From an uncultured archaeon (GTDB taxonomy: Archaea; Hadarchaeota; Hadarchaeia; Hadarchaeales; Hadarchaeaceae): 57,798 nucleotides of DNA. The notes below the pieces were generated by a model. That model was not told where the DNA came from and did no database searches. It was given only the letters and a program-made list of their open reading frames with translations. The DNA lies in contig CAKZTQ010000045.1 in the NCBI GenBank assembly GCA_937921735.1, positions 1 to 57,798 of the forward strand, read 5' to 3'. The position numbers and the translations under genes are program-made. Shown here in pieces: positions 5,931-45,304 of the stretch (position 1 is the first letter of the stretch; the number at the start of each line of letters is the position of its first letter).

Positions 5931-7541
5931 CTATTTAGCGCGCGCACCCGTCATCATCGCTCCTACTATTTCCTTCCTCGCCTTTTCCGCTGGGATTATG
6001 TCTACGAACTTACCCTCGTAGATCGGAGCTATCGTATCGCTTACTTGTAAAACCTCATCGAGATCTTCTGAGATGAGCAAGATCCCCATTCCTTCTTTTT
6101 TGCAATCGAGGAGCTTGTTTCTAACGAATTCTGTTGCACCGACATCGAGGCCCTGCGTAGGTAGATTAGCGATCAATAACTTCTTGGTTCTCGGGATAGT
6201 GCGTGCCAAAATTAATCTTTGTAGGTTCCCTCCGGACAGATGTGCTGCCCTCGTGTAGATACCCGGTGCCATCACCTCAAACTCCGAAATGACTTTTTCA
6301 GCATGCTCACGAATTCGTTTATAGTCGAGAAGCCCCCACTTGGAAAATTCTCTATCGAAATAAAGGCTCAGCGCAATATTTTCCATCAATGAAAATTGGG
6401 GGATGGAGCCGACCCTCACGCGCTCGGAGGGAATATATCCAATTCCCATCTTCAACCTCTCCAACGGGCTGGCGTGCGTGATATCCTTACCTTCGAACAT
6501 TACTTTTCCACCCGAGGCTTTGCGGACGCCCGCCAAAACTTCGGCGAGCTCCTGTTGCCCGTTGCCTGAAACTCCAGCGATTCCGAAAATTTCACCCTCC
6601 CTGATCGAGAAGGTCACTCCCTTTAGAGCTAAAAATCCCCTGTCGCTTATTGCTGAAAGATTTTCCACCCGCAATATTTCCTTTCCCTTTTTTACCTTCG
6701 GTTTCTTCACTCGGAAGAGGACCTCCCTCCCGACCATGTATTTCGCCAAGGCTTCCATTGTGGCTTTTCTCGTCTCAAGACGCTTAACCACTTTGCCTTT
6801 CCTGAGGATGGTAACCCTATCGCTCACGCTGAGCACTTCTGGCAACTTATGGGTAATAAACGGGATCACCGCAATTTCGGTACCCGCCATGCTCCGGAGG
6901 GATTTCAGGAATCTCTCGGTTTCGATGGGGGTCAAAACCGAGGTAGGTTCATCTAGGATCAGGAGCTTTGCGCCTCGATAAAGGGCCTTCACGATTTCCA
7001 CGGATTGTTGTTCGCCTGCCGATAGTTGCCAGACCTTGGCATCGAGGTCTATTTTAAAACCGTATTTATCGCAGAGTTCTTGCACTTCCTTTTTAGCCGC
7101 CTCAATATCCACGATTTTCCCAGCCTTCGGATGCCCCAAAATGATGTTCTCTAAGGCAGTGTGGGCGGGTATCAACTTTCGATGTTGGTGGACCATCCCT
7201 ATCCCGAGGTTGATAGCGTCCAAGGGGGACTTGAATTCCACTTTTTTACCGCGGATGTAAATCTCGCCTTCGTCCGGTTTCAACAGGCCGTAGAGGATGT
7301 TCATGAGGGTGGTTTTTCCCGCACCGTTTTCCCCCAAAATAGCGTGGATTTCACCGGCTCTTATCTCTAAATCAATATGATCGTTGGCCACGACGCCTCC
7401 AGGAAACTTTTTGGTGATCCCCCTTGCCTCGAGGACGACTTCACCGTGTTTTAAATTGGCCCAGAATTTTTCTGATAATTGGCTTCTCTCTTCTTTACGC
7501 CCACCGAAGAGGTCAATTATCTTTTGGCTGAGCACCGACAT
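5931..7541 (-). CDS. CUT2 ABC transporter ATP-binding protein (two ABC domains)
   Basis: Walker A GENGAGKT, LILDEPT and second-domain LSGGNLQR. Confidence 0.95.
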   Translation of the reverse strand: MSVLSQKIIDLFGGRKEERSQLSEKFWANLKHGEVVLEARGITKKFPGGVVANDHIDLEIRAGEIHAILGENGAGKTTLMNILYGLLKPDEGEIYIRGKKVEFKSPLDAINLGIGMVHQHRKLIPAHTALENIILGHPKAGKIVDIEAAKKEVQELCDKYGFKIDLDAKVWQLSAGEQQSVEIVKALYRGAKLLILDEPTSVLTPIETERFLKSLRSMAGTEIAVIPFITHKLPEVLSVSDRVTILRKGKVVKRLETRKATMEALAKYMVGREVLFRVKKPKVKKGKEILRVENLSAISDRGFLALKGVTFSIREGEIFGIAGVSGNGQQELAEVLAGVRKASGGKVMFEGKDITHASPLERLKMGIGYIPSERVRVGSIPQFSLMENIALSLYFDREFSKWGLLDYKRIREHAEKVISEFEVMAPGIYTRAAHLSGGNLQRLILARTIPRTKKLLIANLPTQGLDVGATEFVRNKLLDCKKEGMGILLISEDLDEVLQVSDTIAPIYEGKFVDIIPAEKARKEIVGAMMTGARAK

Positions 7542-9605: not shown

Positions 9606-11414
9606 ATGTGTGGTATAATCGGATACATCGGTAAAAGACAAGCGGCAGCGATCCTATTGGATGGGTTGAAACGTTTGGAATATCGGGGTTATGATTCTGC
9701 TGGTATAGCTACAATCTCGGATAAGCTCCACATGAAGAAGGATAAGGGCAAGATAGAGGAGATCGATCGCAGGTTGAATTTCGCAGACATGCCCGGAACT
9801 ATAGGCATAGGGCATACAAGGTGGGCAACGCATGGCGAACCCTCTCAAAAAAATGCACATCCGCATATTGATAATGCTGGCAAGATAGCAGTCGTACACA
9901 ACGGAATAATCGAAAATTACGAACATTTACGCCATTTTTTGCGCAGCAATGGTTACAGTTTTTATTCAGACACCGACACGGAAGTCGTTCCGAACTTAAT
10001 CAACTACTTTATGCGGCAGGGCCACGATTTTGAGGAGGCCGTAAGGTCAACCGTTAGTCGTCTAAAGGGTAGCTATGCGTTGGGCATCGTAAGTCTCGAC
10101 GAGCCAGATAAACTGATTGCGGTTAGAAAGGAAAGCCCCTTGATCATTGGCCTCGGGGTTGACGAGATGTTCATAGCATCGGACGTCCCAGCCGTGCTTC
10201 CGTATACGAAGCGCGTTATTGTGATGGAAGATGGGGAGATGGCGATCGTGACCTCCGTTAAAGCCATCATCAAGCGCGTGGATTCGGGGGAGATCGTCGA
10301 GAGAAAACCATTAGAGATAACTTGGACCATCGAAATGGCAGAGAAACGTGGTTATCCCCATTTCATGTTGAAGGAGATTCATGAGCAACCTGACGCCGTG
10401 CGGGAAACCCTACGCGCCGCACAAAAAGAGCTCGATGGGTTATGCGACATGCTGCTGAACGCAAAGCGTATTTACCTTGTCGCATGCGGTACTGCTTATC
10501 ATGCCGCTCTCATCGGCAAGTATGCGCTAGCGCAGCTAGCTGGTATGTCAACAGAAGTCGTGATTTCATCGGAGTTTCAGGAAAGCTGCATGGCGGATGA
10601 AGGCACAGTGCTCTTGGCGATTAGCCAGTCAGGCGAAACCGCGGACACCCTCAAAGCAGTTAGGGTTGCTAAAGCGAATGGGGCAAAAATAGCATGCCTG
10701 ACCAACGTCGTGGGTAGCTCGATTACTCGAGAGAGCGACTTAGTCTGCCATACGTACGCAGGTCCTGAAATAGGCGTCGCGGCCACGAAGACATTTTCGG
10801 CCCAAGTTGCATACCTTTTATCGCTCGCCATCCGCTTAGCTGAGAAACGAAGCCTAAAATCTAAAAAGGAGCTCAACGAGTTAGCCATACAACTCCACAA
10901 AATTCCGGAGACGATATTGGACACCCTGCAAATAGTCGAACCCAAAGTTAAGGACATCGCGAGACGACATAAGGACGCGACTAATTTTTTCTTCATAGGC
11001 CGAGGAATAGGCTACCCGATTGCAATGGAGGGAGCGCTGAAGCTGAAGGAGATCGCTTACATCCACTCTGAGGCTACCCCAGCCGGCGAGCTTAAGCATG
11101 GGCCATTAGCGCTCATCCAGCGAGGCGTGCCCGTCGTGGCTGTAGTGGTACCCGGCGCTTCCTATAGCCGAATGCTCAGCAATGTGGAAGAGGTGGGGGC
11201 AAGGGGTGGAGAGGTAATAGCGCTGGCGGTTGAAGGCGATGTCGAAGTCGGGAAGCACGTGACCGAGCTCATCCAAATACCTAAAACTCATGAACTATTT
11301 ACGCCGCTGACCTACATTTTACCCCTCCAACTATTAGCCTATTTTATCAGCGTCGAGAGGGGTCTAGATCCAGATCGCCCGAGACATCTGGCTAAGTCTG
11401 TTACGGTTGAGTAA
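9606..11414 (+). CDS. glmS: Glutamine--fructose-6-phosphate aminotransferase
   Basis: Motifs MCGIIG, LEYRGYDSAG, GHTRWATHG, SQSGETADT and LAKSVTVE. Confidence 0.98.
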   Translation: MCGIIGYIGKRQAAAILLDGLKRLEYRGYDSAGIATISDKLHMKKDKGKIEEIDRRLNFADMPGTIGIGHTRWATHGEPSQKNAHPHIDNAGKIAVVHNGIIENYEHLRHFLRSNGYSFYSDTDTEVVPNLINYFMRQGHDFEEAVRSTVSRLKGSYALGIVSLDEPDKLIAVRKESPLIIGLGVDEMFIASDVPAVLPYTKRVIVMEDGEMAIVTSVKAIIKRVDSGEIVERKPLEITWTIEMAEKRGYPHFMLKEIHEQPDAVRETLRAAQKELDGLCDMLLNAKRIYLVACGTAYHAALIGKYALAQLAGMSTEVVISSEFQESCMADEGTVLLAISQSGETADTLKAVRVAKANGAKIACLTNVVGSSITRESDLVCHTYAGPEIGVAATKTFSAQVAYLLSLAIRLAEKRSLKSKKELNELAIQLHKIPETILDTLQIVEPKVKDIARRHKDATNFFFIGRGIGYPIAMEGALKLKEIAYIHSEATPAGELKHGPLALIQRGVPVVAVVVPGASYSRMLSNVEEVGARGGEVIALAVEGDVEVGKHVTELIQIPKTHELFTPLTYILPLQLLAYFISVERGLDPDRPRHLAKSVTVE

Positions 11415-11427: not shown

Positions 11428-11745
11428 TTATTTGATCAATTCATATTTGAAAAGTTCATCTCTGAACGCTAACAGCACCTCCCTTATGCCGTCCTCATTT
11501 GGAGCATGGACCTCAATGTACCCCGAAGGGAAAAACAGCAGATATGCGCCCCGCCTAAGCTCGAACTTGGCGACGGTCTTGCCAGCCGTCTTCGCTTTTT
11601 TGACCTTAGGGACGCGCTTCAAGAGCTCTTCGATATTTACCTTGGAGCGCAATGTCGTCGTTGCACGAACCGCTTTGACTCTAGGTATTTCAAATACGTT
11701 GTACAGCCGAGGCATATATATGAGGTGTGCCTTTTCTTCGTCCAC
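11428..11745 (-). CDS. Hypothetical protein, probable single TBP-fold domain
   Basis: VKAVRATTTLRSKVNIEEL...YLLFFPSGYIEVHAPNEDGIREVL follows one TBP repeat (NIVASxxLxxxLDLEKI...LLIFxSGKxVxTGAKSEE). Confidence 0.6.
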   Translation of the reverse strand: MDEEKAHLIYMPRLYNVFEIPRVKAVRATTTLRSKVNIEELLKRVPKVKKAKTAGKTVAKFELRRGAYLLFFPSGYIEVHAPNEDGIREVLLAFRDELFKYELIK

Positions 11746-11765
11746 GGCTATCCCAAGTCAACTTT

Positions 11766-11972
11766 TTAAATCCTCTTCGCCGCAAGGCGGATGTCGACAT
11801 CTCGAACTGTTCTGCGACCTGCGTGTTCAGCTAACTTGGCTGCTTCACTAGCTATTATCAAGGCACGCTCCTCCAACACATCAGCTAGGGCGATGGCCGC
11901 ACTCTCGCTGACGCGTTTGGCACCTGACTTTCTGATGATACGATCCACGGCGGCTATCGGTAACTCAGGCAT
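11766..11972 (-). CDS. Archaeal histone (HMfA/HMfB family)
   Basis: MPELPIAAVDRIIRKSGAKRVS...AEHAGRRTVRDVDI, with a GGAGG SD. Confidence 0.97.
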   Translation of the reverse strand: MPELPIAAVDRIIRKSGAKRVSESAAIALADVLEERALIIASEAAKLAEHAGRRTVRDVDIRLAAKRI

Positions 11973-12207
11973 TTAATCGCCTCCTTTTACCTCTAACCTC
12001 CTCCCTTTTTTTGTTTTGAGGGTAGATATTTAAATTTTACTAAAAAAACGTCTAAAAACGCTATTTTAATATGAAAGTTGCAGTTTTTAGCATTTTATTT
12101 TTTCAAGCATGTTTTAAAAAACTCCGTTGTGATTTTTTTGTTCAATGCTTTCGTTTTTCAACAGAAGAGTTATAAAGGGAGCTTGCGCAAATTGCAAAGG
12201 TGCGATA

Positions 12208-13221
12208 TTGCCGTGCGTTATCGTTGCTGGCGGGCAATTTGGCGATGAGGGGAAGGGCAAGGTCGTAGCGTATTTGTCGCTGCACGATAAACCGAAGTTG
12301 GTGGCGAGAGCGGGCGTCGGGCCAAACGCGGGGCATTCGGTGGTTTTCGGAGGGAAAAAATTTGGCCTGCGCCAGGTCCCATGCGGATTTGTATACGAAG
12401 GCGCTCGACTACTGGTGGGCCCTGGAGTTCTCGTCAACCCTGAGGTCCTACTGAAGGAAGTCGATGAAACTGGCGTACGCGGCAGGTTCGGTGTGGATCA
12501 AAAATGCGCGATAATAGAGGCAAAGCACATCGAGGAGGATCAAAAATCCGAGTACCTTCGGGAAAAAGTAGGCTCGACGGGCACCGGTTGTGGCCCAGCC
12601 AATGTTGCCAGGGTAAACCGCATCGCAAAGTTAGCGAAAGAGATCCCGGCGCTTCAGCCTTTCCTAACGGACGTGCCCCTAGAGGTGAACGATGCTCTTA
12701 GCAAAGAAGAGCTCGTCTTGATCGAGGGTTCGCAGGGATTCGGTCTATCCTTGATACACGGCACCTATCCCTACGTAACCAGTAAAGATACCTCCGCCAG
12801 CACGTTGGCCGCCGATGTGGGCGTAGGTCCGACGAAAGTGGACGAGGTCATGTTGGTTTTCAAGGCATATGTTAGTCGCGTGGGGGGAGGACCCCTCGTC
12901 ACTGAAATTCCTCCAGAAAAAGCGGAGGAGATGGGCATCGTCGAATACGGTACCGTCACGGGAAGGCGGAGGCGAATCGGAGACTTCGACTTTGAGCTCG
13001 CTAAACGAGCGGTCATGGTAAATGGCGCTACGCAGGTCGTGATAACGTGCATAGATCGACTTTTCAAGGGTTGCTTCGGCGCGCGCAGTCTGGCGCAGCT
13101 CACGTCTGATGCTAGAGCCTTCATCCAACGGGTAGAGGACGAACTCGGGGTTCCCGTGACGCTGATCTCGACCGGCGAAAGGATAGAAGACATGATAGAT
13201 TTGCGTGACGAAAAGCTCTAA
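12208..13221 (+). CDS. purA: Adenylosuccinate synthetase (short archaeal form)
   Basis: Motifs [30 protein letters not shown] and [11 protein letters not shown]. Start set at TTG 12208. Confidence 0.97.
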
Positions 13222-14693: not shown

Positions 14694-14867
14694 TTAAAAT
14701 CCTAGCAAGGCTTTTCCATAAAATCGCAAAAATATCTCAAAAATGATCACAGCTATGGTGAAGGCAAGCACACTTTTAGGCGATATCTTGATCCCGCGCG
14801 TTTCCTCTCTAAAATAACGGATAAGGCCAGCCCCCGTAGGGGGCATCGTTTCTTCACGCCTGCGCAT
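14694..14867 (-). CDS. secG: Preprotein translocase subunit Sec61beta/SecG (absent from the ORF track, 57 aa)
   Basis: Manual translation MRRREETMPPTGAGLIRYFREETRGIKISPKSVLAFTIAVIIFEIFLRFYGKALLGF shows the AGLIRYF...IKIxP motif plus one TM helix. Confidence 0.93.
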   Translation of the reverse strand: MRRREETMPPTGAGLIRYFREETRGIKISPKSVLAFTIAVIIFEIFLRFYGKALLGF

Positions 14868-23074: not shown

Positions 23075-24388
23075 ATGGATAACACCAATCTAATGGAGCT
23101 TGAGGAAAAAAGGAAAAAATTCGTGGAAAAAATTAGGAGCCTCAGCTCGGCTGATTTTGATTTAGAGCAATGGGAGGGCCTGAGAAAAACCGTCTATCCC
23201 CCCAGCCCCCTCGACATCGACGTCATCATCGACGACACTACGCTGAGGGAAGGATTACAAATGGCGGGGACGGTCACGCCCTTGCCACAAGACGTCGCTA
23301 GGATCGCAGGGATGTTGAGGGATATTGGCGTCGAAAGGCTCGAGGTACTCACGTACACGCGTTCGGATCAGGAGGCCATCAAGCTAATGCACGAAGATGG
23401 ATTGGGGAACATGCTGGCCGCGTGGTGCAGGGCGACGAGGGAAGACGTAGATATGGCCTTAAAACTGGATTTTAAACAGGTGGGCATCTCCCATCCAGTA
23501 TCCTATATACACTTCGAGAAGTGGCCGGAGAGGACCCTCTCTCAACTGGTGGATAGAACGGTGGATACCGTCGCGTATGCAGTGGACCACGGCCTCAAGG
23601 TTTTCGTTCACGGGGAGGACAGCACTAGGGCGGACTGGGACTTTGAGAGAAATTTCATAAATGCCGTAGCGGAGGCCGGAGCTAGCGTCTACAGAATTTG
23701 CGATACCATAGGTTACGGTAGATCGGACCCTAGCGCTCCTCTCCCGTTCGGTATCCCGGCCAAAATTCGACACATCAAGGAGGAAACGAAGATCCCGTAC
23801 GTCGAGATACACGCTCACGACGATTTGGGCAACGCGGTCGAAAACACCATGGCGGCGATCAGGGCTGCCTCCGGTCTCTTCGATAAGGTATACGCCAGCA
23901 CCACCTTCCTCGGAATAGGGGACAGGGCGGGCAATGCCGAAACGGAAAAGGTGATGATGAACTGCTACATGCATCACGGCATCTCCAAGTGGAATCTGAG
24001 CCTCTTCAGGGAATTGGCGCTGTTCATGGCGGCGGCCCTAAGGTATCACCTTCCGGTCAACAAGGCGATCGTGGGGGACGCCGCGTTTGCTCACGAGTCC
24101 GGCGTTCACATCCAGGGGGTCATGGCACTTCCCCTCACCTACGAGCCATTCCCGCCCGAGCTCGTAGGGCAGAGGAGGACGATCGTGATAGGAAAAAGAT
24201 CGGGCAAACACGGCGTGAAGCTCAAGCTGGAGGAGATCATGGGAAAACAAATAGGGGAAGACGACCCAAGGCTGGCGAAACTCGTGGAGATGATCAAGGA
24301 TAAGTTCGTGGACGGAAGTAGGAGGTACCCGATAAAGGAAACGGAATTTAAGGAATATGCGAGGAAGGTCGGTTTCGAAATAAAGTGA
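23075..24388 (+). CDS. DRE-TIM metallolyase, Re-citrate synthase/homocitrate synthase-like
   Basis: Motifs DTTLREGLQ, EDSTRAD, RICDTIGYG, HAHDDLG, GDRAGNA and HESGVH. No LeuA regulatory domain. Confidence 0.85.
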   Translation: MDNTNLMELEEKRKKFVEKIRSLSSADFDLEQWEGLRKTVYPPSPLDIDVIIDDTTLREGLQMAGTVTPLPQDVARIAGMLRDIGVERLEVLTYTRSDQEAIKLMHEDGLGNMLAAWCRATREDVDMALKLDFKQVGISHPVSYIHFEKWPERTLSQLVDRTVDTVAYAVDHGLKVFVHGEDSTRADWDFERNFINAVAEAGASVYRICDTIGYGRSDPSAPLPFGIPAKIRHIKEETKIPYVEIHAHDDLGNAVENTMAAIRAASGLFDKVYASTTFLGIGDRAGNAETEKVMMNCYMHHGISKWNLSLFRELALFMAAALRYHLPVNKAIVGDAAFAHESGVHIQGVMALPLTYEPFPPELVGQRRTIVIGKRSGKHGVKLKLEEIMGKQIGEDDPRLAKLVEMIKDKFVDGSRRYPIKETEFKEYARKVGFEIK

Positions 24389-24405
24389 AATCGAGTTGAG
24401 GAGAG

Positions 24406-25659
24406 ATGGGCAAAACCATCGTCGAGAAGATACTGAGCAGGGCCTCGGGCCGTGACGTTAATGCCGATGATATCGTGGTGGCCGAGGTGGATGCGGCGAT
24501 GGCGCACGATGGCACCGCTCCGCTTGCGATCGAGGCATTCAGGGAGATGGGCGGAAAAAAGGTTTGGGACCCCAACAGGATCATCCTTGTTATCGACCAC
24601 ATCGCCCCAAGCGCCTCTGAGGGCACTTCCTCTTTACACGTCATGATGAGGGAATTCTCAAGGGAGCAGGGTATAAAGTTATACGATGTGGGCAGCGGTA
24701 TTTGCCATCAGCTCATGCTGGAAGGGAGCCACGTAAGACCAGGCGCGGTCGTGGTAGGGGCGGACTCGCACACTTGCACGTATGGCGCGGTTGGCGCGTT
24801 CTCGACCGGCATAGGGTCGACGGAGATGGCAGCCGTCTTCATCTCCGGTAGACTCTGGTTCAGGGTCCCAAGGACCCTAAAGTTCTATATCGAGGGCAGA
24901 CTGCCCGATTTTGTCACGCCGAAGGACATCATCTTGTACATTTTGGGTAAAGTTGGGGCGGATGGGGCAAATTACAGAGCCATCGAATTTGGAGGGCCGG
25001 TAGTTGAACAGATGGGCGTCAGCGGTAGGATGACCCTGTGCAATATGGTGGTTGAGATGGGGGCAAAGGCGGGCATAGTGGAGCCGGACGAAAAGACCTC
25101 CGCATACTTCAGGGAAGACTTCGGCGTAGAGGTCGGGGCCATGAGGAGCGACGACGACGCGGCGTACGAGGATGTCCTGAAGTTTGACGTGAGCGGTTTG
25201 GAGCCACAAATAGCCTGCCCGAGTTCGGTGGACAACGTCAAACCCATCAGCGAGGTGGAGGGGGTCGAAGTGGACCAGATCTTTCTCGGAAGCTGCACCA
25301 ACGGCAGGCTCGAGGATCTGCGACAGGCGGCTGAGATCCTGAGAGGCGCCGAGGTTAAAGATGGGGTAAGGGTGCTCATCGTCCCGGCCTCTCGGAGGGT
25401 GTACCTACAAGCCCTCAAGGAGGGGCTGATCGAGGTCTTTCTGCGGGCCGGCTGCACGGTCTGCAATCCTGGCTGCGGTCCATGCCCGGGTGGCCATATG
25501 GGGGTTCTGGCCCCTGGCGAGGTCTGCCTCTCGACCTCAAACAGGAACTTCGTGGGGAGGATGGGAAGCACTAAAGCGAAGATCTACCTGGCCTCTCCCT
25601 TGACGGCAGCCGCCTCAGCCATCACAGGGAGGATAACTGATCCACGTGACTTTGGGTGA
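24406..25659 (+). CDS. LeuC/HacA-family aconitase-type hydratase, large subunit
   Basis: Motifs [26 protein letters not shown] and [10 protein letters not shown]. Confidence 0.95.
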
Positions 25660-26174
25660 AAAGGATGATCAGGGTCTCAGGTAGGGCTTGGAAGTACGGC
25701 GACGACGTGAGCACGGATTTGATAATGCCCGGCAAGTACAAATTCAAGACCATCGATCCGAGCGAGCTAGCTAAACATGCGATGGAGGGGATCGACCCGG
25801 AATTCTCGAAAAAGGTTAGAGAGGGGGATATCGTCGTCGCGGGTTGGAACTTCGGGTGTGGGTCGAGTAGGGAACAAGCACCGTTGGCGTTGAAGCATGC
25901 GGGCGTAGGGGCGATCATCGCAAAATCCTTCGCGCGCATATTTTTCAGGAATTCTATAAACGTCGGTTTGCCCATCGTTGAAAGCCAAAACGTTTTCGAT
26001 GAAACTGACGAAGGGGATATCCTCGAGGTCGACTTGGACGAAGGTCTGGTGAGGAACTTGAGTAAAAACAAGTCTTTTGCCGTGAAGCCCCTGCCCGGCT
26101 TCCTCTTGAGGATATTACAGGACGGGGGGCTCGTAGAGCACTTTAAGAAGAGGGGCAAATTTGAATGGGGCTAA
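25656..26174 (+). CDS. LeuD/HacB-family hydratase, small subunit
   Basis: Motifs [23 protein letters not shown] and [13 protein letters not shown] overlap with the large subunit. Confidence 0.95.
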
Positions 26175-26187
26175 GGGGGGTCAAGGC

Positions 26188-27276
26188 ATGTACAAGGTCA
26201 CACTCATACCTGGAGATGGGATCGGACCCGAGGTCATCGAAGCCGCGGTAAGGTGCATAGAAGCAACGGGCGTCGCGATCAGGTGGGAAAGGGTCGAAGC
26301 GGGAGAAAAAGTCATGAGAGAATTTGGGACCCCTCTCCCTAAGCAGGTGATAAGGTCAATTGAAAAAAATAAAGTAGCGCTCAAAGGACCGATAACCACC
26401 CCCGTTGCTTCTGGATTCAGAAGCGTGAACGTGGCGTTGAGGAAGATCTTTGACCTATACGCTTGCGTGCGGCCATGTAAGCTCTACGAAGGGGTGATGT
26501 CGAAATTTAAGCGAGTGGACCTCGTCGTCGTGAGGGAAAACACCGAGGATCTTTACTCTGGTATCGAGTTCGCCGAGGCTCAGCCGGAGACCAGGGAGCT
26601 CATGGATTTTTTGAGGCGAAAGGAAGCCGAGGTCAGGCATGATTCGGCGATAAGCCTAAAGGTCATCTCTCGTTTCGCCTCCGAGAGGATAGCCAGATTC
26701 GCGTTTAACTACGCCGTCGAAAATGGGCGCAGAAAGGTCACCGTTGTGCACAAGGCCAACATCATGAAGTACTCCGACGGCCTTTTCTTGGAGGTCGCGA
26801 GGGAGGTCGCGCGGGAATTTCCGCAAATCGAGTTTGAGGACAGGATCGTGGACAACATGTGTATGCAGCTCGTCAGAAAGCCGGAGCAATACGATGTCAT
26901 ACTGGCGCCGAATCTTTACGGGGACCTGCTCTCCGATCTATGCGCTGGGCTCGTGGGCGGCCTGGGCATGGCGCCTAGCGCCAACATAGGCGAAGGCATC
27001 GCGATCTTCGAACCGACCCACGGTAGCTCCCCAAAGTACGCTGGCTTGAACAAGGTCAACCCGACCGCGACGATACTATCGGGCGTGCTCATGCTTCGCT
27101 ACTTAGGGGAGAAGGAGGCGGCAGAGAGGTTGGAGCGCGCCGTTGCCAAGGTGATCGCCGAGGGCAGGTACGTGACCTACGATCTAAAGGAAAATCCAAG
27201 CGACCCAACGGCGGTTGGGACCCAGGAAATGGCCGATGCCATAATCGAGGAGATGGAGGGTCGATGGAAGTCATGA
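26188..27276 (+). CDS. icd: Isocitrate dehydrogenase (IDH/IPMDH family; probably NADP-type)
   Basis: Motifs [32 protein letters not shown] and HGSSPKYAG. Confidence 0.75.
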
Positions 27277-27858
27277 GGTGATTTGCTCTTCTTCGAGCCA
27301 TCCGGCGCGGAGGAGTTCCTCGCGCAACTTGGCGATGGCCTCTTGTGCGGCGGGCGAGTCCGTCACTTTTTTCGAGAGCTCATCAAATTCTCTAAGGCCC
27401 ATCTTGACCTTCCTCTCGACGACCTCCCTGACGACCCGCTCCACGGGCCTCTCCACTATCCGTTGCACCTCCGGCACCGCCACTGGCTTCTCGACCGTCC
27501 GCTCTATCACCCTCTCCACCACCACGGGCTTCTCTATGATGCGCTCATGGCGCATGTGGCGGAGGGCGTCGCTTGCCCTCACCAGCTCCCCGCAGGTCGG
27601 GCAGGTGCCAAGCTGGATCTCGTTCAGCCTGCTCGCAGCCGATCTCCTAGCGTTGGAGGCCTTTTCGGTGGCCCTCATCCTCCGCTCCGGAAGGGGGATC
27701 CCCAACCTCTTGCAGAGCTCGTCTAGGCCGCCGGGAAACATCGCGTAAAACCTGGAGCGCGAAAGTTTAAGCTCGCTCAGCAAACGCCTAACCGACGGGA
27801 CCTCACCCTCGAGCTCATATTTTTCTCGGGCGAATTTTAGACAGGCCTCGAAGCTCAT
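27271..27858 (-). CDS. Hypothetical: DsrC/TusE-like helical domain + C2H2-like Zn finger + Val/Glu/Pro repeat region
   Basis: PSVRRLL...[19 protein letters not shown]; CPTC-x11-HMRH; [23 protein letters not shown]. Confidence 0.65.
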
Positions 27859-27870
27859 TTGCGTTCCTCC

Positions 27871-27888
27871 AGAACGTTTTAACGTTCT
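27871..27888. promoter_or_regulatory. Inverted repeat just upstream of the 195-aa gene
   Basis: AGAACGTT-TT-AACGTTCT, with another AGAACGT half-site at 27892. Confidence 0.5.
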
Positions 27889-27938
27889 TTGAGAACGTAT
27901 TTAAGCCTTCTGGTCCTCGAAAAAAGCTCTAAGCTACG

Positions 27939-28304
27939 CTATTTCACCCTGGAAATGAACATTAACGGATAATCGAGCTCTCGCACGTAGCGCATACCCA
28001 CGCGAATCCTCGATTTCCCGTACTTTGCGACCAGCTCGATCGAAAGCATCCTCCCTTCGAGCTCTGGATAAATGTACGGATGTTTCCGCTTGCCCTTTGG
28101 GCATTTGATTTTTACTTTTGCCTCCTCGATAAATGGCTGCGCGAGCGCCGCTTGTTCCATCGCTCGCTCGAGGGCTTTCACGTCATGGATGGCTGCGCCG
28201 ACGAACTGATGATAGAGGGCGCCGAGGGTTATCGCTCCCTCGAATATCGCTCGCTCGCGATCGGTCACGCTTTTGTCGAAGTACTTGCGCGCTGGGTCTT
28301 CCAT
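27939..28304 (-). CDS. mptD: Archaeal dihydroneopterin aldolase
   Basis: Motifs TDRERAIFEGAITLGALYHQFVG, QPFI and LDYPLMFI. Confidence 0.92.
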   Translation of the reverse strand: MEDPARKYFDKSVTDRERAIFEGAITLGALYHQFVGAAIHDVKALERAMEQAALAQPFIEEAKVKIKCPKGKRKHPYIYPELEGRMLSIELVAKYGKSRIRVGMRYVRELDYPLMFISRVK

Positions 28305-28415
28305 CTTCCCCCTCTCACGCTATTCGCACCCCAAAGCTAAATAATCGACGATTTTGGATTCATAGCCCAAATGCTGGGTGATGCGCTGTCAGGGCAAGTG
28401 TCGGCTGCAGGTTGG

Positions 28416-28664
28416 TGACATACGTGTGTCAAAAGCAGCTAAGCGTCGCATGATCGATGACATACGTATGTCATGACACGAGCGCCATCGCCGCGATAGC
28501 TTGTTACCCGAGAACGGATAACCCCCCGTTCGTCGACCTCGGGACCATGATCCCCGGAGTTAGCTAATTCTTCGAGCTTCTAGAGGAAATGGCGCACCAG
28601 CCCCTCCGATGGGGCATGACATACGTGTGTCAAAAGCTCAGCGATCGATGACACACGTATGTCG
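28416..28664. repeat. Four 16-bp palindromes TGACAYACGTRTGTCR in two duplicated pairs
   Basis: Copies at 28416, 28458, 28617 and 28649. An exact 21-bp direct repeat TGACATACGTGTGTCAAAAGC recurs 201 bp apart. Confidence 0.9.
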
Positions 28665-28678
28665 ATGGCAGTTTTCCG

Positions 28679-29407
28679 CTAAATGATCTTTCTGGGCACG
28701 TTCGGGATGTCCTCGCCGCCGCCGGTCAGGTTGACGAGCCTAGCCCCGAGCTCGCCCGCGAGCCACGCAAGGAGCTCCTTGCATATAGCTAGCTTGGCTA
28801 CCTTTCGCGCTAGGTCCTTGTCACCCGAGCGCTTCCCCACTTGCCTGCCGAGGTTCATACCCGCGAGGTAGATCTTAGACGCCCCCAGTTCGTGCGCCAT
28901 AAACGCGGCGCGGTCGCCATCCGTGAAGCCGCCGAAGTTGTAGAGTCTGCCGAATGGCTCGACCTGCGTGGTGCCGATGACTCGCTCTTTCAACGTCGGG
29001 GCGATGTTTCGGACCTGCCCCAAGTTGTCGCCGTGTGCGTGGACAACCAGCCAAGAGCCCAGCCGCCAGGCGCGGAGCTGATCCTGGACTTTCCCGTCGA
29101 GGTCCGTAACGATGACGTCAGGCCTGCGATACTCGATTACCGCCGAGGTAGCGCCGTCCGCTGCTATGAGCACCTTCTCCAGATATCCCGCTTGCTCCAG
29201 CCTGATCAAGTCCTCGTCTAGCGACGGACCGGCGCCGAACACCACGCACTCTTGCCCGCGGAGGATGCTCGCTAATCCGTGGGGGTCGGGGTCGGGTAGG
29301 AGGTCGTCCAGCGCCTTCGCCGCCTCGGCATCGGCGATCGGGTCAAGCCCTAGCCGTTTAACGATGGACTCGTAGCGCGGACGCCAAACCTCCCATCGCA
29401 TGTTCAT
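28679..29407 (-). CDS. mptE: 6-hydroxymethyl-7,8-dihydropterin pyrophosphokinase
   Basis: Motifs GAGPSL, AADGA, VTDLDG, HAHGDN and NFGGFTDGDRA. Confidence 0.93.
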   Translation of the reverse strand: MNMRWEVWRPRYESIVKRLGLDPIADAEAAKALDDLLPDPDPHGLASILRGQECVVFGAGPSLDEDLIRLEQAGYLEKVLIAADGATSAVIEYRRPDVIVTDLDGKVQDQLRAWRLGSWLVVHAHGDNLGQVRNIAPTLKERVIGTTQVEPFGRLYNFGGFTDGDRAAFMAHELGASKIYLAGMNLGRQVGKRSGDKDLARKVAKLAICKELLAWLAGELGARLVNLTGGGEDIPNVPRKII

Positions 29408-29814
29408 CCCCATTTAACTGCGTCCACGATCTTGAGCGGGATCTCCCTTCCTCGATGGTCATAGGCACGCCAAGAGCTCCGGTCGTATGGGTAAGCGATG
29501 ATCACATGAACGCGCCCGAACTTAGCGAATAATACTAGGTCCTCCGGCGATGGCTGTAGATCGGGCGAAGGGTGGCTGTGAACGGTGCCGCACGCGCTCC
29601 GATCGATGGGCAACATGTGGAGCTCCAACAAGGCCGAACGACCCGATGAGCGAGTCCCCGGGAGTACCAGTACCTCGCGGATCAAACCCCGTTCAGCCCT
29701 TAGGATCCCCGCGAACTCGTTGGGGTGGCTCTTGCGCGAGACCTCGAGCATGAAGATGAGGGCTTCTCGTTCGATGCCGAATATTTCCTCCACCGTTGTC
29801 GCCTCGATCTCCAC
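29404..29814 (-). CDS. JAB1/MPN+ (JAMM) metalloprotease
   Basis: PNEFAG plus the JAMM motif HSHPSPDLQPSPED. Confidence 0.92.
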   Translation of the reverse strand: MEIEATTVEEIFGIEREALIFMLEVSRKSHPNEFAGILRAERGLIREVLVLPGTRSSGRSALLELHMLPIDRSACGTVHSHPSPDLQPSPEDLVLFAKFGRVHVIIAYPYDRSSWRAYDHRGREIPLKIVDAVKWG

Positions 29815-29858
29815 TCGTTCCGTTTCTCATTTAGCGATGCCGGTTCTCGAATAGTAAA

Positions 29859-29895
29859 GTTTCAGTAGGTGGCCTCGTAAAGTGAGGATTGAAAG
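29859..29895 (+). CRISPR. Solitary CRISPR repeat (37 bp)
   Basis: GTTTCAGTAGGTGGCCTCGTAAAGTGAGGATTGAAAG differs by one G from the array repeats. No second repeat nearby. Confidence 0.95.
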
Positions 29896-30930
29896 TCACC
29901 GCTGAGGTTCTATAATTACCTTTAGGCAATTCTCACCGCTGGCCGCGAGCTCAAACGCCCGTTGGGACTCCGACAGCCCAAACCTGTGGGTGATCATGCC
30001 CTCCACGTCCAACTCTCGCCTCGTTAAAAGCGCAAGCGCTTCCTCTAGGTCGTTGGGCGCCGCGCCGTAGGAGGTCCTAATCGTGATCTCGTTCCTCCAA
30101 AAGTCCACGAGCGGTAGGGCAACTTCTTGCCCGGGTGGGGGGACAGCGAAGAACAGGATGGTACCCCCTCTGTCCACCGAGCGAAGGGCCTGTTCGGCTG
30201 CAGCCCTTGCTCCAGCGCAGACTATAACCTTGTCCGCGGGCCTTCCGTCGTTGAGCTCCTTTATCCTGCTCGGCACGTCCTCGTCCGCATGTATTGCTTC
30301 GTCGGCCCCAAATCTCCTCGCGGCCCTCAGCCTGTACTCGCTCAGATCGGTCGCCACTATCAGCCCCGCTCGACGGAGCCTTGCGAGTTGGACGTGCAGC
30401 AGCCCTGCCACGCCGCTGCCCAACACTAGGATGGCATCTCCCTCTCTCACGTCGGCGATCCTCTGGCCACGCAGGGCACATGCTAGGGGCTCCACGAAGG
30501 TTCCGACTTCGAAGGATATCTCGGGCGGTAGGAGGTAAACGCCGCGCTCGACGTTTATCCTAGGTACGCGGACGAACTCGGAGAACCCTCCCGGATAGTA
30601 ATTGGTGGTGTGTAGGGTCTCGCACGCGGTGTGATGGCCGGAGAGGCAATATCTACACTCGCCGCAGGGGACGTGATGCGAGACGAAAATCCTGTCCCCG
30701 ACCTTGTAGCGCGTTACACCCTCCCCGACCTCTTCCACTAGGCCGGTAGCCTCGTGGCCGAGAACTCTGGGCGCGGTCTTGAGCCTATACCACTCGAGGA
30801 GATCGCTGCCGCAGATGCCGCAGGCCATCACCTTCATCAACAGCTCGCCCGGCCCCACCTTAGGTCTAGGTAGCTCCTCCAACCTCACGTCCCGATTGCT
30901 GTAGTACATCGCGACTCGCAAGGCATACAC
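29896..30930 (-). CDS. Zinc-dependent alcohol/polyol dehydrogenase (MDR)
   Basis: Motifs CGICGSD, GHE, CGECRYC...C, EPLAC and GSGVAG. Confidence 0.93.
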   Translation of the reverse strand: MYALRVAMYYSNRDVRLEELPRPKVGPGELLMKVMACGICGSDLLEWYRLKTAPRVLGHEATGLVEEVGEGVTRYKVGDRIFVSHHVPCGECRYCLSGHHTACETLHTTNYYPGGFSEFVRVPRINVERGVYLLPPEISFEVGTFVEPLACALRGQRIADVREGDAILVLGSGVAGLLHVQLARLRRAGLIVATDLSEYRLRAARRFGADEAIHADEDVPSRIKELNDGRPADKVIVCAGARAAAEQALRSVDRGGTILFFAVPPPGQEVALPLVDFWRNEITIRTSYGAAPNDLEEALALLTRRELDVEGMITHRFGLSESQRAFELAASGENCLKVIIEPQR

Positions 30931-30951
30931 CGGGAAGGGGAGGGAATGATC

Positions 30952-31758
30952 CTATTTTCCCGTTCCACTGCTTTTTATCTCCTCGAATAGCTCGAGTGCC
31001 TCCTTGGGGGTGGCGTCCTCGTGGATGATCGCGCGTATCGCCCTAGCCATCGCCACCGGATAATCGTGCTGCCAGATGTTGCGTCCGAGGTTTACCCCTA
31101 TTGCTCCCTTTTGCAGCGCATCGTAAACCCAACTGAAGACCTCCAGCTCGCTGTCCACCTTGGGTCCGCCGGCTATGACTATCGGCACCGGGCATCCACG
31201 TACGACCTTTTCGAAGCCCTCCTCGCAGTAGTAGGTCTTCACCACCCTGGCCCCAAGCTCAGCGGCTATCCTGCAAGCGAGGGCGAGATACCTCGCGTCC
31301 CGCTTCTCGAGCTCGGCGCCGACGGCCGTCACCGCCATCACGGGAATGCCGTATTCCTCGCACTCGTTCACGAGGTTCGAAAGGTTGAGCAACGTCCGAT
31401 GCTCGTTGGGGGCGCCCACGAAGATCGACATCGAGACGGCGCAAGCGTTCAACCTTATCGCCTCCTTGACGGACGTGGTGATCCCTTCTTGGTCCAGCTC
31501 GTCCCTCCTGGCCATGCTAGTGCCACCTGAGACGCGGAGGATGATCGGTTTGGTGTTGGCCGGGTCGATGCAGGAGCGAAGGATCCCCCTCGTGAGCATT
31601 ATGGCGTCGACGTATGGCAGCAGGGGCGCCACGGTCTTTCCGGGTTCCTCGAGCCTTGTGGTGGGGCCTTGGAAATACCCGTGGTCTATGGGCAAGAACA
31701 TCGCCCTGCCATCGCGCTGGATCAATTGGGCGAGCCTATTCCTCATCCCCCAATCCAT
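30952..31758 (-). CDS. lsrF: LsrF-like class I aldolase/thiolase
   Basis: Motifs MDWGMRNRL, DHGYFQGPT, RIAAELGA, VKTYYC and IAGGPK. Confidence 0.85.
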   Translation of the reverse strand: MDWGMRNRLAQLIQRDGRAMFLPIDHGYFQGPTTRLEEPGKTVAPLLPYVDAIMLTRGILRSCIDPANTKPIILRVSGGTSMARRDELDQEGITTSVKEAIRLNACAVSMSIFVGAPNEHRTLLNLSNLVNECEEYGIPVMAVTAVGAELEKRDARYLALACRIAAELGARVVKTYYCEEGFEKVVRGCPVPIVIAGGPKVDSELEVFSWVYDALQKGAIGVNLGRNIWQHDYPVAMARAIRAIIHEDATPKEALELFEEIKSSGTGK

Positions 31759-31767
31759 CCGATCCCC

Positions 31768-31980
31768 TCACCCCTTTGGCTTGACGATTAAATATCCTTT
31801 GTCGATGAGCCAGTAGTGGAATTCCCTGGCGGTGTGCAGGCATCCGACCTTACATATTTCCCTCGTCCTCTCGTAGTCCTCGGAGCCCTTCTCCTTCGCA
31901 TCTAGGAGGAGTTGCACGGGGCATCTCACATCCCTGCAGAACTCTCTCGCTTGGTATTCCACGAAGCCGGGGATCGACAC
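31768..31980 (-). CDS. Small hypothetical protein, possibly metal-binding
   Basis: FCRDVRCP...ICKVGCLHT...FHYWL; ends 9 nt before lsrF. Confidence 0.65.
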   Translation of the reverse strand: MSIPGFVEYQAREFCRDVRCPVQLLLDAKEKGSEDYERTREICKVGCLHTAREFHYWLIDKGYLIVKPKG

Positions 31981-32047
31981 GGTCGCACCGATGTTTGTAA
32001 TTTCGGAGCGAATATAAAACTTGGTCGAGCGCGCTCGGTTAGCCGCA

Positions 32048-33055
32048 CTATCCCTCGCGGAGGCTGGCCCTGATCTCCTCGACCGCCTTCACCATAGCTT
32101 GAAGCTTGCCTATGGCCTCCTCCCGGGTTCTCGTCTTGAGCCCGCAGTCCGGGTCTATCCATAGCTGCTCTGGGCTCAGGACCTCGAGGGCGCGCCTTAT
32201 CCTCTTCTTGATGAGGTCAACGCTCTCGATGACATGTGAGTGGACGTCCACGACGCCAAACGAGATATCCTTGGTGAAGGGATGCCTCCTGAAAAGTTCG
32301 ACGAGGTCAAGCTCGCTATTCGACATCTCTAGGTCGAAGTTGTCCACGGGTAACTCGAGCATTTGGGGGTAGATGAACTCGAAGGCCCCATAACACACGT
32401 GCGCGATGAAGTATGCGTCAACGCCTCGCGTGACGATTTCGAGCGCGTCGACGACGAACTCCTCAAGCTCCTCTGGCCTCGTCGAGAGTGCCGGCTCATC
32501 TATTTGGATTATCTTCGCGCCCGCTTCCGCGAGTGCCCTCACCTCCTGATGCAGCGCTTTGGCTAAGTCCAGGCAAGCGTCCTTCCTGCTGGAGTAATAC
32601 TCGTTGAACGACCAGTCCATCATGGTATAGGGTCCTGTGATCATCCCCTTGATCGGCTTCTTGGTAAGCGCTTGGGCGAACTTCCACCAATCGACCGTTA
32701 TAGGCCCTCGCCAGCGGACCTCGCCAACGATGATGGGTTTTCGGTAATAGCGATTGCCGTATGAGCGAACGAGCCCGCTTATCTTAAAGCCCTCTAAGTT
32801 CTCGGCGAAATAGGTGGCCATATCCCCTCGATACATCTCGCCGTCCACGAGGACATCGAGCCCGATCTCCTCCTGCAGCGCTATCCACTCCTTGGTCGCT
32901 CGCTCCTCCATTTCCCTGAGATCTTTTGGTTTGAGCCTTCCAGCGAGCATCATCCTCCTCGCTTCCACCAACTGCTCGGGTTTGGGGTAGCTGCCCACGG
33001 CAGTGGTGGGCAACAAGGGAAGGTCCAGTCCGAGCTTGCGTAGTTTTTCCCTCAT
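32048..33055 (-). CDS. Cobalamin-independent methionine synthase, catalytic (C-terminal MetE-like) subunit
   Basis: Motifs TAVGSYPKP, DGEMYR, QIDEPA, HVCYG and DPDCGLKT. Confidence 0.92.
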   Translation of the reverse strand: MREKLRKLGLDLPLLPTTAVGSYPKPEQLVEARRMMLAGRLKPKDLREMEERATKEWIALQEEIGLDVLVDGEMYRGDMATYFAENLEGFKISGLVRSYGNRYYRKPIIVGEVRWRGPITVDWWKFAQALTKKPIKGMITGPYTMMDWSFNEYYSSRKDACLDLAKALHQEVRALAEAGAKIIQIDEPALSTRPEELEEFVVDALEIVTRGVDAYFIAHVCYGAFEFIYPQMLELPVDNFDLEMSNSELDLVELFRRHPFTKDISFGVVDVHSHVIESVDLIKKRIRRALEVLSPEQLWIDPDCGLKTRTREEAIGKLQAMVKAVEEIRASLREG

Positions 33056-34035
33056 CCCAGCACCTCCCTCGCCTTGTTAGCGATTGCCACGAGATTCTTG
33101 AGCTTCGCGAACGCTGTCTCGCGCGGCAAGTGCTCGAGCCCGCACGATGGGTTGAGATAGACCGGCCGGCCTTCCACATGGGGGATGATCCGTTCGAGGG
33201 TGGGCAGGACCTCGGCTTCCTTTTCCATTCTCGTGTTCCTACCGTCGATAAGCCCAAGCCCAAGTCCCTTGCTCGAGCCCTTTTCCTCGATGATGTCGAC
33301 CAAATTGCCGCTGTAGGTGAAATCGAGGCCGATGATGTCCACGGGGAGCTCTTGGAGTTTCTCGTATATCCCCGCGGCGTCGCCGAAATAGGTGTAGAGG
33401 GCTAGACTAGCGCTCTTGAAGTGTTCGCGCATTTCCTCGATCGCGTTCCGGAGTAGCTCGAGATCTTGAGGGTTTTTAAGGATGGCCGGTTCGTCCACTT
33501 GAACGATTTCAGCGCCCACTTTTTCCAGTTCACCTATCTCTCGTCCGATGGCGTTCGCTAGGTCTAGGACCAGCCCTTCGATGTCCGAGTAATGTCTGTT
33601 GATGGAAGATCTCGCGATAGTGTAAGGCCCTGTCACCACGGGTTTAACCGGGACGGGCGAGACCCCTTTGGCAAAGGAGAACTCTTCGACCAAGATGGGC
33701 CCAATCCAGCGCACCTCGCCCTCGACCACCGGCTGTCTAAAGTAGAAGTTGGTGTCGAAAAACCTCAGTAGTCCATCTATCTCGAAGCCCTTCAGCCTGC
33801 GGGCGATGTGGGAAATAGGATCATACCACCGCACTTGCCCATCCGTGACCAAATCCAAACCAGCTCGCACCTGTTCTTGGATGACCTCCTTCGTCACCTC
33901 GTCCTGTACCCGCATGAACTCCTCATCCGATATTTCCCCTTTCTCCCACCTCGCGTAGGCTTGGCGATGTTTTTGCTGCTCGGGCTTATCCCCTATGCGC
34001 GGGTAGCTTCCCGTGTTCGCCGTCAGCAACTCCAT
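33052..34035 (-). CDS. MetE N-terminal-like subunit (split MetE)
   Basis: Motifs GSYPRIG, DGQVRW, RFFDTNFYFRQP, TYFG and PSCGLEHLP. Lacks the HxC Zn motif and overlaps the catalytic half (ATGA). Confidence 0.88.
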   Translation of the reverse strand: MELLTANTGSYPRIGDKPEQQKHRQAYARWEKGEISDEEFMRVQDEVTKEVIQEQVRAGLDLVTDGQVRWYDPISHIARRLKGFEIDGLLRFFDTNFYFRQPVVEGEVRWIGPILVEEFSFAKGVSPVPVKPVVTGPYTIARSSINRHYSDIEGLVLDLANAIGREIGELEKVGAEIVQVDEPAILKNPQDLELLRNAIEEMREHFKSASLALYTYFGDAAGIYEKLQELPVDIIGLDFTYSGNLVDIIEEKGSSKGLGLGLIDGRNTRMEKEAEVLPTLERIIPHVEGRPVYLNPSCGLEHLPRETAFAKLKNLVAIANKAREVLG

Positions 34036-34132
34036 CCTGTCACCAAGGCGAGATGGAAGCCAAGCGATATAACTTTTAAGTAGGTGCCAGCCGAAAACTC
34101 GCCGAGAGGGCATCGTCCCCGTTTTCAACGCA

Positions 34133-35803
34133 TTACCCGTGGCTTTTCACCTGTTTCCTAAAGATCTCCCTTACCCTTTGAATGGTATCCGCGTCTTCTG
34201 GCCCCTTGTCGTCCCGGATCCTTGTTATCCTGGCGAACCTCAGCGCCATCCCACACTTGTACTTCGGGCTCCGCTGGATCTCGTTATAAGCCACCTCGAC
34301 GACCACTTTTGGTGTGACCAATACGCGCCGACCCTCCCGTTTGATCGTCAGCTCCTTTAATCGCTCGGTCATCTCCGCGATTTCCTTATCGGTCAGACCC
34401 TTGAAGGTCTTCCCGACGACGAGAAACTCGCCCGTTGCCTCGTCTCGAGCCGCGAGGTAGTAATCGGAAAGCCACCTGTGTCGCTTTCCGTACCCATACT
34501 CGGCCGCGACGATGACGAGGTCCAGCGGCTCGAGCACGGGTTTTATCTTCAACCAGAGCTTCCCCCTCGCGCCGGGGGTGTAGGTGCTATCCAACTTTTT
34601 TGCCACCAGTCCTTCATGTCCCGCTCGAAGGGATTCCTCGAGGAACCCCCTCGCCTCGCTCGCGTCGTCGGTTATGAGTTGCTCCACCACCGAGATTTCG
34701 CCGGCCAGCTCGCAGAGCTTTTTCCTCCGGTCTAGGTAGCGGAAATCGATCAAGCTGTGGCCATCGTAATACAAAACGTCGAACAGGGTCAAGCTCACCG
34801 GTATCTCCCGCATCATCGCCTCGATGTCTCGTTCCCTCCGAAATCTTTGCATCAGGTACTGAAACGGGAGCGGCACGTTGCCCTTGCCCAACGCTACGAC
34901 CTCGCCCTCTAAGATCACCTGCTCAGCCTTAACTTCCTCCTTCACCGCGTCAACGACCTCCGGCAAACCCTCGGTCACATCGCTAAGCCTGCGGCTGAAC
35001 ACCTTGACCTCATCTCCCCGCTTGTGGACCTGCACGCGGGCACCGTCTAGCTTATATTCGAAGGCCGTGCTACCACCGTGGAGCGCGATGGCCTCTTCCA
35101 CCGAGCAGATGTTTTGGGCAAGCATGGGCTGAGTGGGCCTGAAGATCTCAGGGCCAATCGCTAGCACCCCCTTCTCGCCCTCTGTGGCCGCGACTTTAGC
35201 CACGTCGACGATCTCACCGCAGAACATGGTTGCCCTTTTGATCGCCTCCGGGCGCACGCCGAATGCCCTAGAGACGGCAAGCTCCATGAGGCCCTCCCGA
35301 AATCCCGTGCGCATCTCGCCGATGATTATTTTGATCAGATATTTCGCCTCAAGAGGCGTGGCCCTGCTGAGCAGGCCCTCCAGTATGGCCTCCTTCCTTT
35401 CCCTTGCTCCCTCCCCCTTGACCGCCGCGATCCTATTGAAAATTCTAATCACCTCGTCCAACGTCAGCGGTGCCTCGATCAACGTGGCCTGCCTTTTCGG
35501 CTTCGAGGCGAATACCATCTCCGCGGCATCGCCTAGATCCCCCGTCGCGTCGAATGCTCTCTCCAGCTCCTCCCGCTCGGAGCCAACCGCTCGCAGCACG
35601 ACGTCGGACAACGTGGCCCAGCTGATGTCCAAGTTCTTGGCGCTCCAGCGAGGGAAGGGGCGGCCCGATATCATCAACACCGCTGGCTCGACCTCGCTTG
35701 GGCGAAGCTCGCGGAGGAAATTTGCTACGAGGTCCACCATTTTACTCCTTTCCCTCGTCCTGCTCAGTAGTTCACATAGTTCTGCCAACCTGCGAAACTC
35801 CAC
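34133..35803 (-). CDS. lig: ATP-dependent DNA ligase
   Basis: Motifs PMLAQ, EYKLDGARVQ, EGLVAK, WLKIK and ALRFARI. Confidence 0.97.
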   Translation of the reverse strand: MEFRRLAELCELLSRTRERSKMVDLVANFLRELRPSEVEPAVLMISGRPFPRWSAKNLDISWATLSDVVLRAVGSEREELERAFDATGDLGDAAEMVFASKPKRQATLIEAPLTLDEVIRIFNRIAAVKGEGARERKEAILEGLLSRATPLEAKYLIKIIIGEMRTGFREGLMELAVSRAFGVRPEAIKRATMFCGEIVDVAKVAATEGEKGVLAIGPEIFRPTQPMLAQNICSVEEAIALHGGSTAFEYKLDGARVQVHKRGDEVKVFSRRLSDVTEGLPEVVDAVKEEVKAEQVILEGEVVALGKGNVPLPFQYLMQRFRRERDIEAMMREIPVSLTLFDVLYYDGHSLIDFRYLDRRKKLCELAGEISVVEQLITDDASEARGFLEESLRAGHEGLVAKKLDSTYTPGARGKLWLKIKPVLEPLDLVIVAAEYGYGKRHRWLSDYYLAARDEATGEFLVVGKTFKGLTDKEIAEMTERLKELTIKREGRRVLVTPKVVVEVAYNEIQRSPKYKCGMALRFARITRIRDDKGPEDADTIQRVREIFRKQVKSHG

Positions 35804-35880
35804 AGTTAAACCCCATATCTTGTTCAAGCGCGCGGCATAAGTCTTTAAAGATGCCTGCGCAATTTACTCCGGTAGCGAGA

Positions 35881-36483: not shown

Positions 36484-36546
36484 GACCGAGGCTATCGGAA
36501 AACCAAAGGGTTTTACGGAGGTCCATGAACTTGAGGTAGGGAGAAG

Positions 36547-38753: not shown

Positions 38754-38757
38754 TGGC

Positions 38758-45291: not shown

Positions 45292-45304
45292 AACCCTCGT
45301 CGTA

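Follow-up and report, generated by a model that had tools for sequence, protein, structure and literature searches.

What can a single lobe of the TATA-binding protein (TBP) do when it is encoded on its own, directly behind a histone gene? The question is raised by a locus of an uncultured archaeon of the Hadarchaeaceae (phylum Hadarchaeota; assembly GCA_937921735.1, here also G000), in a stretch of 57,798 nucleotides (nt) on contig CAKZTQ010000045.1, referred to below as the window. A protein of 105 amino acids (aa), here called half-TBP, is encoded there:

11428..11745, minus strand: half-TBP gene, 105 aa, GTG start, single TBP lobe

The original prediction, made from the DNA letters, had described a basic open reading frame 20 nt past the histone stop on the same strand, with motifs of one TBP repeat. 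The coordinates, a net charge of +7 and an isoelectric point of 9.7 agreed with this, and the quoted motifs were present in the translation. Half-TBP is a real, conserved gene of a single TBP lobe. As for its role, we tentatively favour, from sequence comparison, an accessory protein that would bind duplex nucleic acid via a rebuilt sheet face, without TATA specificity or recruitment of transcription factor B (TFB).

Conservation and distribution

Of 100 candidates, 93 were homologues (identity 54–92%), and those with an organism name were Hadarchaeota. The median ratio of nonsynonymous to synonymous substitution (dN/dS) was 0.12 over 35 within-genus pairs, which were picked for equal length and a synonymous distance of 0.05–0.6 and are not independent. 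With a family profile built from 67 sequences (residue statistics use 126), half-TBP was present in 40 of the 66 genomes of the phylum and in 14 of the 26 that are at least 90% complete; 39 of the 40 carriers had one copy. By family, the carriers comprised 30 of 45 genomes in f1 (plus this genome), the single f2 genome and eight of nine in f3, and the profile search found the gene in none of the 10 genomes of families f4–f6. The gene tree required 12 changes for 13 genera, the minimum possible, which fits vertical descent. In the best reading, half-TBP is a vertically inherited, dispensable, lineage-specific gene of part of the Hadarchaeota only.

Outside the phylum, the family was not found in 95 other archaeal genomes, where two weak matches lay in or beside canonical TBP genes, nor in any of 84 candidates from viral contigs. 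A search of 1.84 billion proteins returned five matches, four of them family members and one a repetitive protein of 2999 aa. No longer, fused form was seen among 8000 candidates of 215–2000 aa (weak evidence). No match was obtained in the PDB by sequence or profile, or in NCBIfam; the one PHROGs match (E 0.12) was disregarded.

Two trivial explanations were rejected. An artefact or shadow reading frame is ruled out by the homologues, the single-copy pattern and the dN/dS value. A fragment of a two-repeat TBP is ruled out because all 40 full-length copies end at 104–105 aa and canonical TBPs are encoded elsewhere in the genome.

One f3 genome (G054) held two near-identical copies (L043 and L045, on contigs C74 and C7), one of them without a histone. 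Downstream of both were gatE and a gene that we take to be Lrp/AsnC-like.

Fold and likeness to TBP

TBP was the best fold match of the half-TBP model, and the likeness was strong by fold and weak by sequence. The sole Pfam match, to PF00352 (E=0.023, 15 bits), lay below the cut-off of 22.9, and PF00352 matched 20 of the 67 family members at E≤1 (best member, E 7.8e-4). The proposed stand-alone TBP lobe was thus borne out by the fold, whereas the PF00352 comparison suggested for it fell short. The IFxSG turn, also cited in its favour, occurs in the translation, but its Gly is conserved in just 52% of the 126 sequences. An aromatic residue at L5.1 was found in all of them (Phe72, 126/126), the equivalence to the L5.1 of PMC7221094 being drawn from alignment.

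In the protein, a disordered stretch (residues 1–9) and a conserved arm (11–24) precede an S1-H1-S2-S3-S4-S5-H2 lobe that is superposable on TBP and places the protein in the TBP-domain (helix-grip) superfamily. The model had a predicted template modelling score (pTM) of 0.80, with the N-terminal arm ordered. Its residues 11–104 superposed on residues 2–184 of a TBP chain; half-TBP therefore includes a segment that in TBP is supplied by the other repeat. When a canonical-type half was folded alone, residues 1–15 were unpaired and the pTM was 0.68. Half-TBP may either close on itself as a monomer or pair as a swapped dimer; the monomer models bear only indirectly on a symmetric saddle. It has the features of the monopartite class of TBP-domain proteins: one lobe, fewer than 150 aa, no adjacent second repeat and a canonical TBP elsewhere in the genome. 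This genome also carries two two-repeat TBP genes, one divergent, plus a TFB. The second of these TBP genes (L003, G000:C12:161-661), near a contig end, is divergent relative to the main one and takes a separate branch in the tree.

A rebuilt binding face

Face positions were assigned by aligning the half-TBP family with 32 Hadarchaeota TBPs in hhalign, the register of S2-S3 being adjusted by hand; against canonical TBP the hhalign probability was 33–57%, and reversed controls gave <0.5%. The roles of the positions are established for TBP, apart from two signatures, which come from PMC7221094. Canonical repeats of the 32 TBPs had Asn and Val in S1, the stirrup Phe, the L5.1 Phe and the Lys after SG at 97–100%. 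At these positions the 126 half-TBP sequences had Ser or Ala at 25, and Arg27, Lys56, Phe72 and Tyr76, each at 100%. The face that contacts TATA has thus exchanged Asn for Ser/Ala, Val for Arg, the stirrup Phe for Lys and Lys for Tyr, and only Leu70 and Phe72 of the contact residues are kept, both invariant. Lys60, Glu62, Tyr68, Leu70, Glu78 and His80 were further conserved residues of the face. Two C-lobe stirrup glutamates of TBP bind TFB, according to PMC7221094; both sites were Glu in 32 of 32 canonical C-lobes, whereas half-TBP has Arg/Lys52 and Ser/Ala54.

Conservation scores in half-TBP were 0.85 for the face, 0.82 for the core, 0.80 for H2, 0.85 for the arm and 0.70 for other positions. 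The face thus matches the core in conservation, which implies a function, though a different one from that of TBP. As regards the transcription factor originally suggested, one that binds TATA or recruits TFB is not supported, because the contact residues and both TFB glutamates are replaced.

For the same reason, it is highly improbable that half-TBP is an alternative homodimeric TBP, or a living one-repeat ancestor, that binds TATA and recruits TFB. Most sheet-face positions have changed, a canonical TBP is present in the genome, and a long branch (2.14) separates half-TBP from all TBP repeats. The best fold match is nevertheless TBP, Phe72 and Leu70 are invariant, and the model includes the segment from the other repeat, so that a swapped dimer could rebuild the saddle. 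A lone canonical-type half, however, leaves its first residues unpaired, whereas the half-TBP arm is ordered, and it is the single-repeat TBPs of Micrarchaeota (below), not the hadarchaeal family, that fit the description.

Gene order and promoters

The features around the gene are the following.

9606..11414, plus strand: glmS-type gene with GATase and SIS domains, convergent with half-TBP; context only
11746..11765, minus strand: spacer between histone and half-TBP, 20 nt, the shortest of 38 measured; coding strand without a T-run
11750..11754, minus strand: GGGAT, at −9 to −5 of the half-TBP GTG, putative ribosome-binding site or transcription-start element
11763..11770, minus strand: TATA-like octamer, overlapping the histone stop and starting at −25 of half-TBP
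11766..11972, minus strand: HMf-type archaeal histone gene, 68 aa (NF043032, 83.5 bits, cut-off 50; PF00808 above cut-off)
11980..11984, minus strand: GGAGG, ribosome-binding site of the histone gene
12027..12034, minus strand: TATA box of the histone promoter, here at −62
12145..13221, plus strand: adenylosuccinate synthetase gene purA, divergent from the histone gene; context only; its start is probably farther downstream than 12145

Linkage was counted over 40 full-length half-TBP copies in 39 genomes; a 41st, truncated copy (G025), also after a histone, was excluded. A histone gene lay directly upstream in 33 copies and within 900 nt in five more (38/40), across three families, so that the adjacency seen in the window is conserved. 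Neither a fold other than that of TBP nor a lack of conserved linkage, the two outcomes named as refuting the original prediction, was thus observed. The two copies with no histone within 3 kb upstream were both among the nine f3 copies, only three of which had an adjacent histone. The linked gene was always the purA-linked main histone, in genomes holding one to five histone matches; in this genome it is the top-scoring of three. An M29 aminopeptidase gene was directly downstream of half-TBP in 28 of the 40 copies (28 of the 31 in f1 and f2, with a gap of about −3 to 19 nt) and at none of the nine f3 loci. In most relatives it stands between half-TBP and the glmS-type gene. Its best match in this genome is on another contig (G000:C11:76434-77372, 48% identity), which indicates that the window locus lost or moved the M29 gene. 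At 26 of 35 loci purA lay no more than 400 nt from the histone, a count from which three loci with insufficient sequence were excluded. At all six histone loci examined from genera g7 and g11, half-TBP is missing and the aminopeptidase comes after the histone; a closely similar histone is retained there.

In 31 of the 40 copies and 11 of the 13 genera, a TATA-like motif began at −38 to −33 relative to the start of half-TBP, against a mean of 2.4 and a maximum of 8 in 2000 shuffles; motif and interval were chosen after viewing the sequences, and kin are not independent. The distance of this box to the start was fixed whatever the spacer, and the box resembles that of the histone itself. G occupied −9, −8 and −7 in 37, 37 and 35 of 40 copies, respectively. 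The nine copies without a box at the family position were eight from g14, most of which carried another T-rich motif at about this position, and that of the window, where the octamer is displaced (−25) and may not act as a promoter of half-TBP. Most relatives probably transcribe half-TBP from its own promoter, to judge by these motifs. In this genome, given the shortest spacer and a box at −25, half-TBP may plausibly be transcribed by read-through from the histone promoter. Of 38 loci, 34 had a matching histone TATA box between −60 and −73, behind a purine-rich stretch resembling a B recognition element.

The histone promoter is well conserved in the relatives: the TATA box precedes the start by about 70 nt, and GGAGG closes a leader of about 40 nt; in the window the leader region (11973–12034) is about 8 nt shorter.

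The original prediction had proposed a co-transcribed chromatin module. Co-transcription is plausible in this genome, but the module is weakened by the TATA-like box of the relatives, by unrelated neighbours that are similarly conserved, by the losses in g7 and g11 and by the two copies without a histone. It is accordingly quite unlikely that the lobe tunes chromatin by binding to the histone dimer or to DNA wrapped around histones, even though the linkage spans three families and always involves the main histone, with a spacer of 20 nt here; among f3 copies adjacency is the exception, and in g7 and g11 a closely similar histone persists without half-TBP. The adjacency is best read as mostly inherited gene order. 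A more specific proposal, that a symmetric dimer of the rebuilt lobe binds the neighbouring histone or histone-wrapped DNA and is kept beside the main histone gene for that reason, is a long shot. Eukaryotic TBP pairs with histone-fold partners (NC2, TAFs); if the proposal were true, half-TBP would be a TBP-derived archaeal chromatin factor, a prokaryotic parallel to TBP with NC2 or TAFs.

The downstream gene raises another explanation, which we consider rather doubtful: a protein–protein adaptor, whose conserved Tyr/Glu/His/Arg face, or whose conserved H2 and arm surface, binds for example the co-transcribed aminopeptidase (M29), or acts as a regulator of canonical TBP or of TBP partners. The 28 of 31 f1 and f2 copies with that gene and the high conservation of H2 and the arm agree with it, and TBP-type domains that mediate protein contacts are noted in PMC3597702. 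The aminopeptidase is missing, however, from all f3 loci, is encoded on another contig in this genome and is retained in g7 and g11 without half-TBP; moreover, the basic rim of the face suits nucleic acid.

Proposed role

Under the accessory nucleic-acid-binding reading that we favour, half-TBP would have left the basal transcription role. Its beta-sheet face would lie across the minor groove of a duplex nucleic acid, most likely DNA. Contacts would be made by Phe72 and Leu70, which are retained, by Tyr68 and Tyr76, both invariant, and by a basic rim formed of Arg27, Lys56, Lys60 and Arg65. The fold, the conservation of the face, the replaced contact residues, the conserved upstream box and the gene losses are direct observations, from which we infer duplex binding, its target and the oligomeric state. 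The protein would neither read TATA nor recruit TFB, and its role would be accessory, architectural or regulatory. In most relatives it would have a promoter of its own and share a transcript with the downstream aminopeptidase, and in this genome it would probably rely on read-through from the histone promoter.

Several points weigh against this proposal. Two glutamates of the proposed face, Glu78 (94%) and Glu62 (85%), would be unfavourable near a phosphate backbone. The net charge is 0 or −4 in three g14 copies, although the canonical TBPs of g14 appear acidic too. The face assignment depends on a hand-adjusted alignment at 15–20% identity and an hhalign probability of 33–57%. The histone is the best-kept neighbour (38/40 within 900 nt, vs 28/40 for the aminopeptidase and 26/35 for purA). 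Finally, the promoter of half-TBP amounts to no more than a motif, and the AT-rich box might also serve as the histone terminator.

A related explanation, which seems unlikely to us, is that half-TBP binds RNA or an RNA/DNA hybrid, akin to the TBP-related N-domain of RNase H3. That domain, as described in PMC4132731, is likewise a single TBP-like lobe whose sheet face is in use, with Glu/His/Tyr chemistry; unlike half-TBP, it is fused to a nuclease and comprises about 70 aa. Among the top 50 fold matches listed for half-TBP, this domain did not occur.

Other TBP lobes and further features of the window

Single-repeat TBP genes were also observed in the phylum of genome G119, whose TBP relatives are mostly named Micrarchaeota. 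Of its 71 genomes that are at least 90% complete, classed by match adjacency, 69 had a strong PF00352 match: one single-repeat TBP gene in 16, two separate single-repeat genes in 28 and a two-repeat gene in 25. Only single-repeat genes (about 90–110 aa) were thus present in 44 of the 69. The single-repeat genes kept the TATA face and the TFB glutamates; face residues were intact in 54 aligned halves, of which four came from genomes not placed in this phylum. G119 itself (97% complete, 3 contigs) had one single-repeat TBP (L207:2983-3279, on G119:C3), near rpo4 and DUF655 genes. Further halves were L201–L206 and L208–L210, and similar ones occurred in G077, G100, G121, G142 and G151, which are not placed in the phylum. 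The Micrarchaeota single-repeat TBPs are the real candidates for a homodimeric TBP.

Another divergent TBP-like lobe, here termed the Pro-Cys lobe, is widespread in a stand-alone form of 85–103 aa (L187–L200, L211, L215–L222). It also occurred C-terminally on proteins that we take to be ThiF/MoeB-like and PP-loop-like and, in this genome, within a 253-aa protein beside presumably IscU-, IscS- and ThiI-like genes (lobe sites G000:C15:5205-5495 and 7241-7483). The Pro-Cys lobe may act in sulfur relay or RNA modification.

The G+C content of the window is about 50% over the first 24 kb and rises to 56–61% over most of the rest (24000–40000, 44000–57000); the window may combine regions of different origin, or the assembly may be chimeric. 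A tRNA gene (40874–40946, plus strand) was the sole Rfam match in the window. A 57-aa open reading frame (14694–14867, plus strand) after an htpX-like gene presumably resembles Sec61beta/SecG.

Comparison with known systems

Stand-alone TBP lobes have been described in Halobacteria and Thermococcales (Brindefalk et al. 2013, PMC3597702), and lobes were recovered here from archaea other than Hadarchaeota, including genomes that we take to be Thermococcales; single TBP domains are thus less rare than the original prediction implied. The Thermococcales monopartite proteins comprise 82–136 aa, mostly 91–97 (Table 3 of PMC3597702), and, like them, half-TBP is a divergent lone lobe of about 100 aa beside a normal TBP. 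Its best profile match was to Thermococcales-type lobes (L187 and L188, 97–98 aa) and Pro-Cys lobes (hhalign 75%, E 2.5e-5 over 59 columns; reversed control 0.1%). We infer from length and taxon, not accessions, that L187 and L188 are proteins of that Table 3; the TBP of genome G158 is very close to that of P. woesei. Half-TBP and these lobes alike lack the acidic stirrup motif. Unlike them, half-TBP has no Pro-Cys motif before S1, and its arm and face are distinct and conserved. A Pro-Cys profile (8 sequences) had four matches in this genome, the half-TBP locus not being among them. The tree of half-TBP and Pro-Cys lobes gave no supported grouping (81/44) and long branches, while the hhalign probability was 75% vs 57% for canonical TBP. 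Half-TBP is probably another, sequence-distinct family of the already described class of stand-alone TBP lobes. A literature search, with most subscription journals and supplements outside its scope, returned no paper on the half-TBP family, its histone linkage or the Micrarchaeota single-repeat TBPs. In the ESM Atlas, TBP-like clusters of 90–98 aa (scores 0.86–0.90) are a lead only.

Compared with canonical archaeal TBP (PF00352; PDB 1pcz, 1ais, 1mp9), half-TBP has one repeat, falls below the Pfam cut-off, has replaced the contact residues and TFB glutamates, and is dispensable. Halobacterial TbpA and the Micrarchaeota TBPs are one-repeat genes, as is half-TBP. TbpA clusters with true TBPs in PMC3597702, and Micrarchaeota halves, unlike half-TBP, reach 108.9 bits on PF00352 and keep the face residues; they gave no meaningful profile match to half-TBP (1%). 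Half-TBP is not the missing one-repeat ancestor of TBP, for which the Micrarchaeota genes are the better test. The role of lone lobes was left open in PMC3597702, and half-TBP, with a face that is strictly conserved yet rebuilt, offers a clean test of a lone lobe freed from both TATA and TFB.
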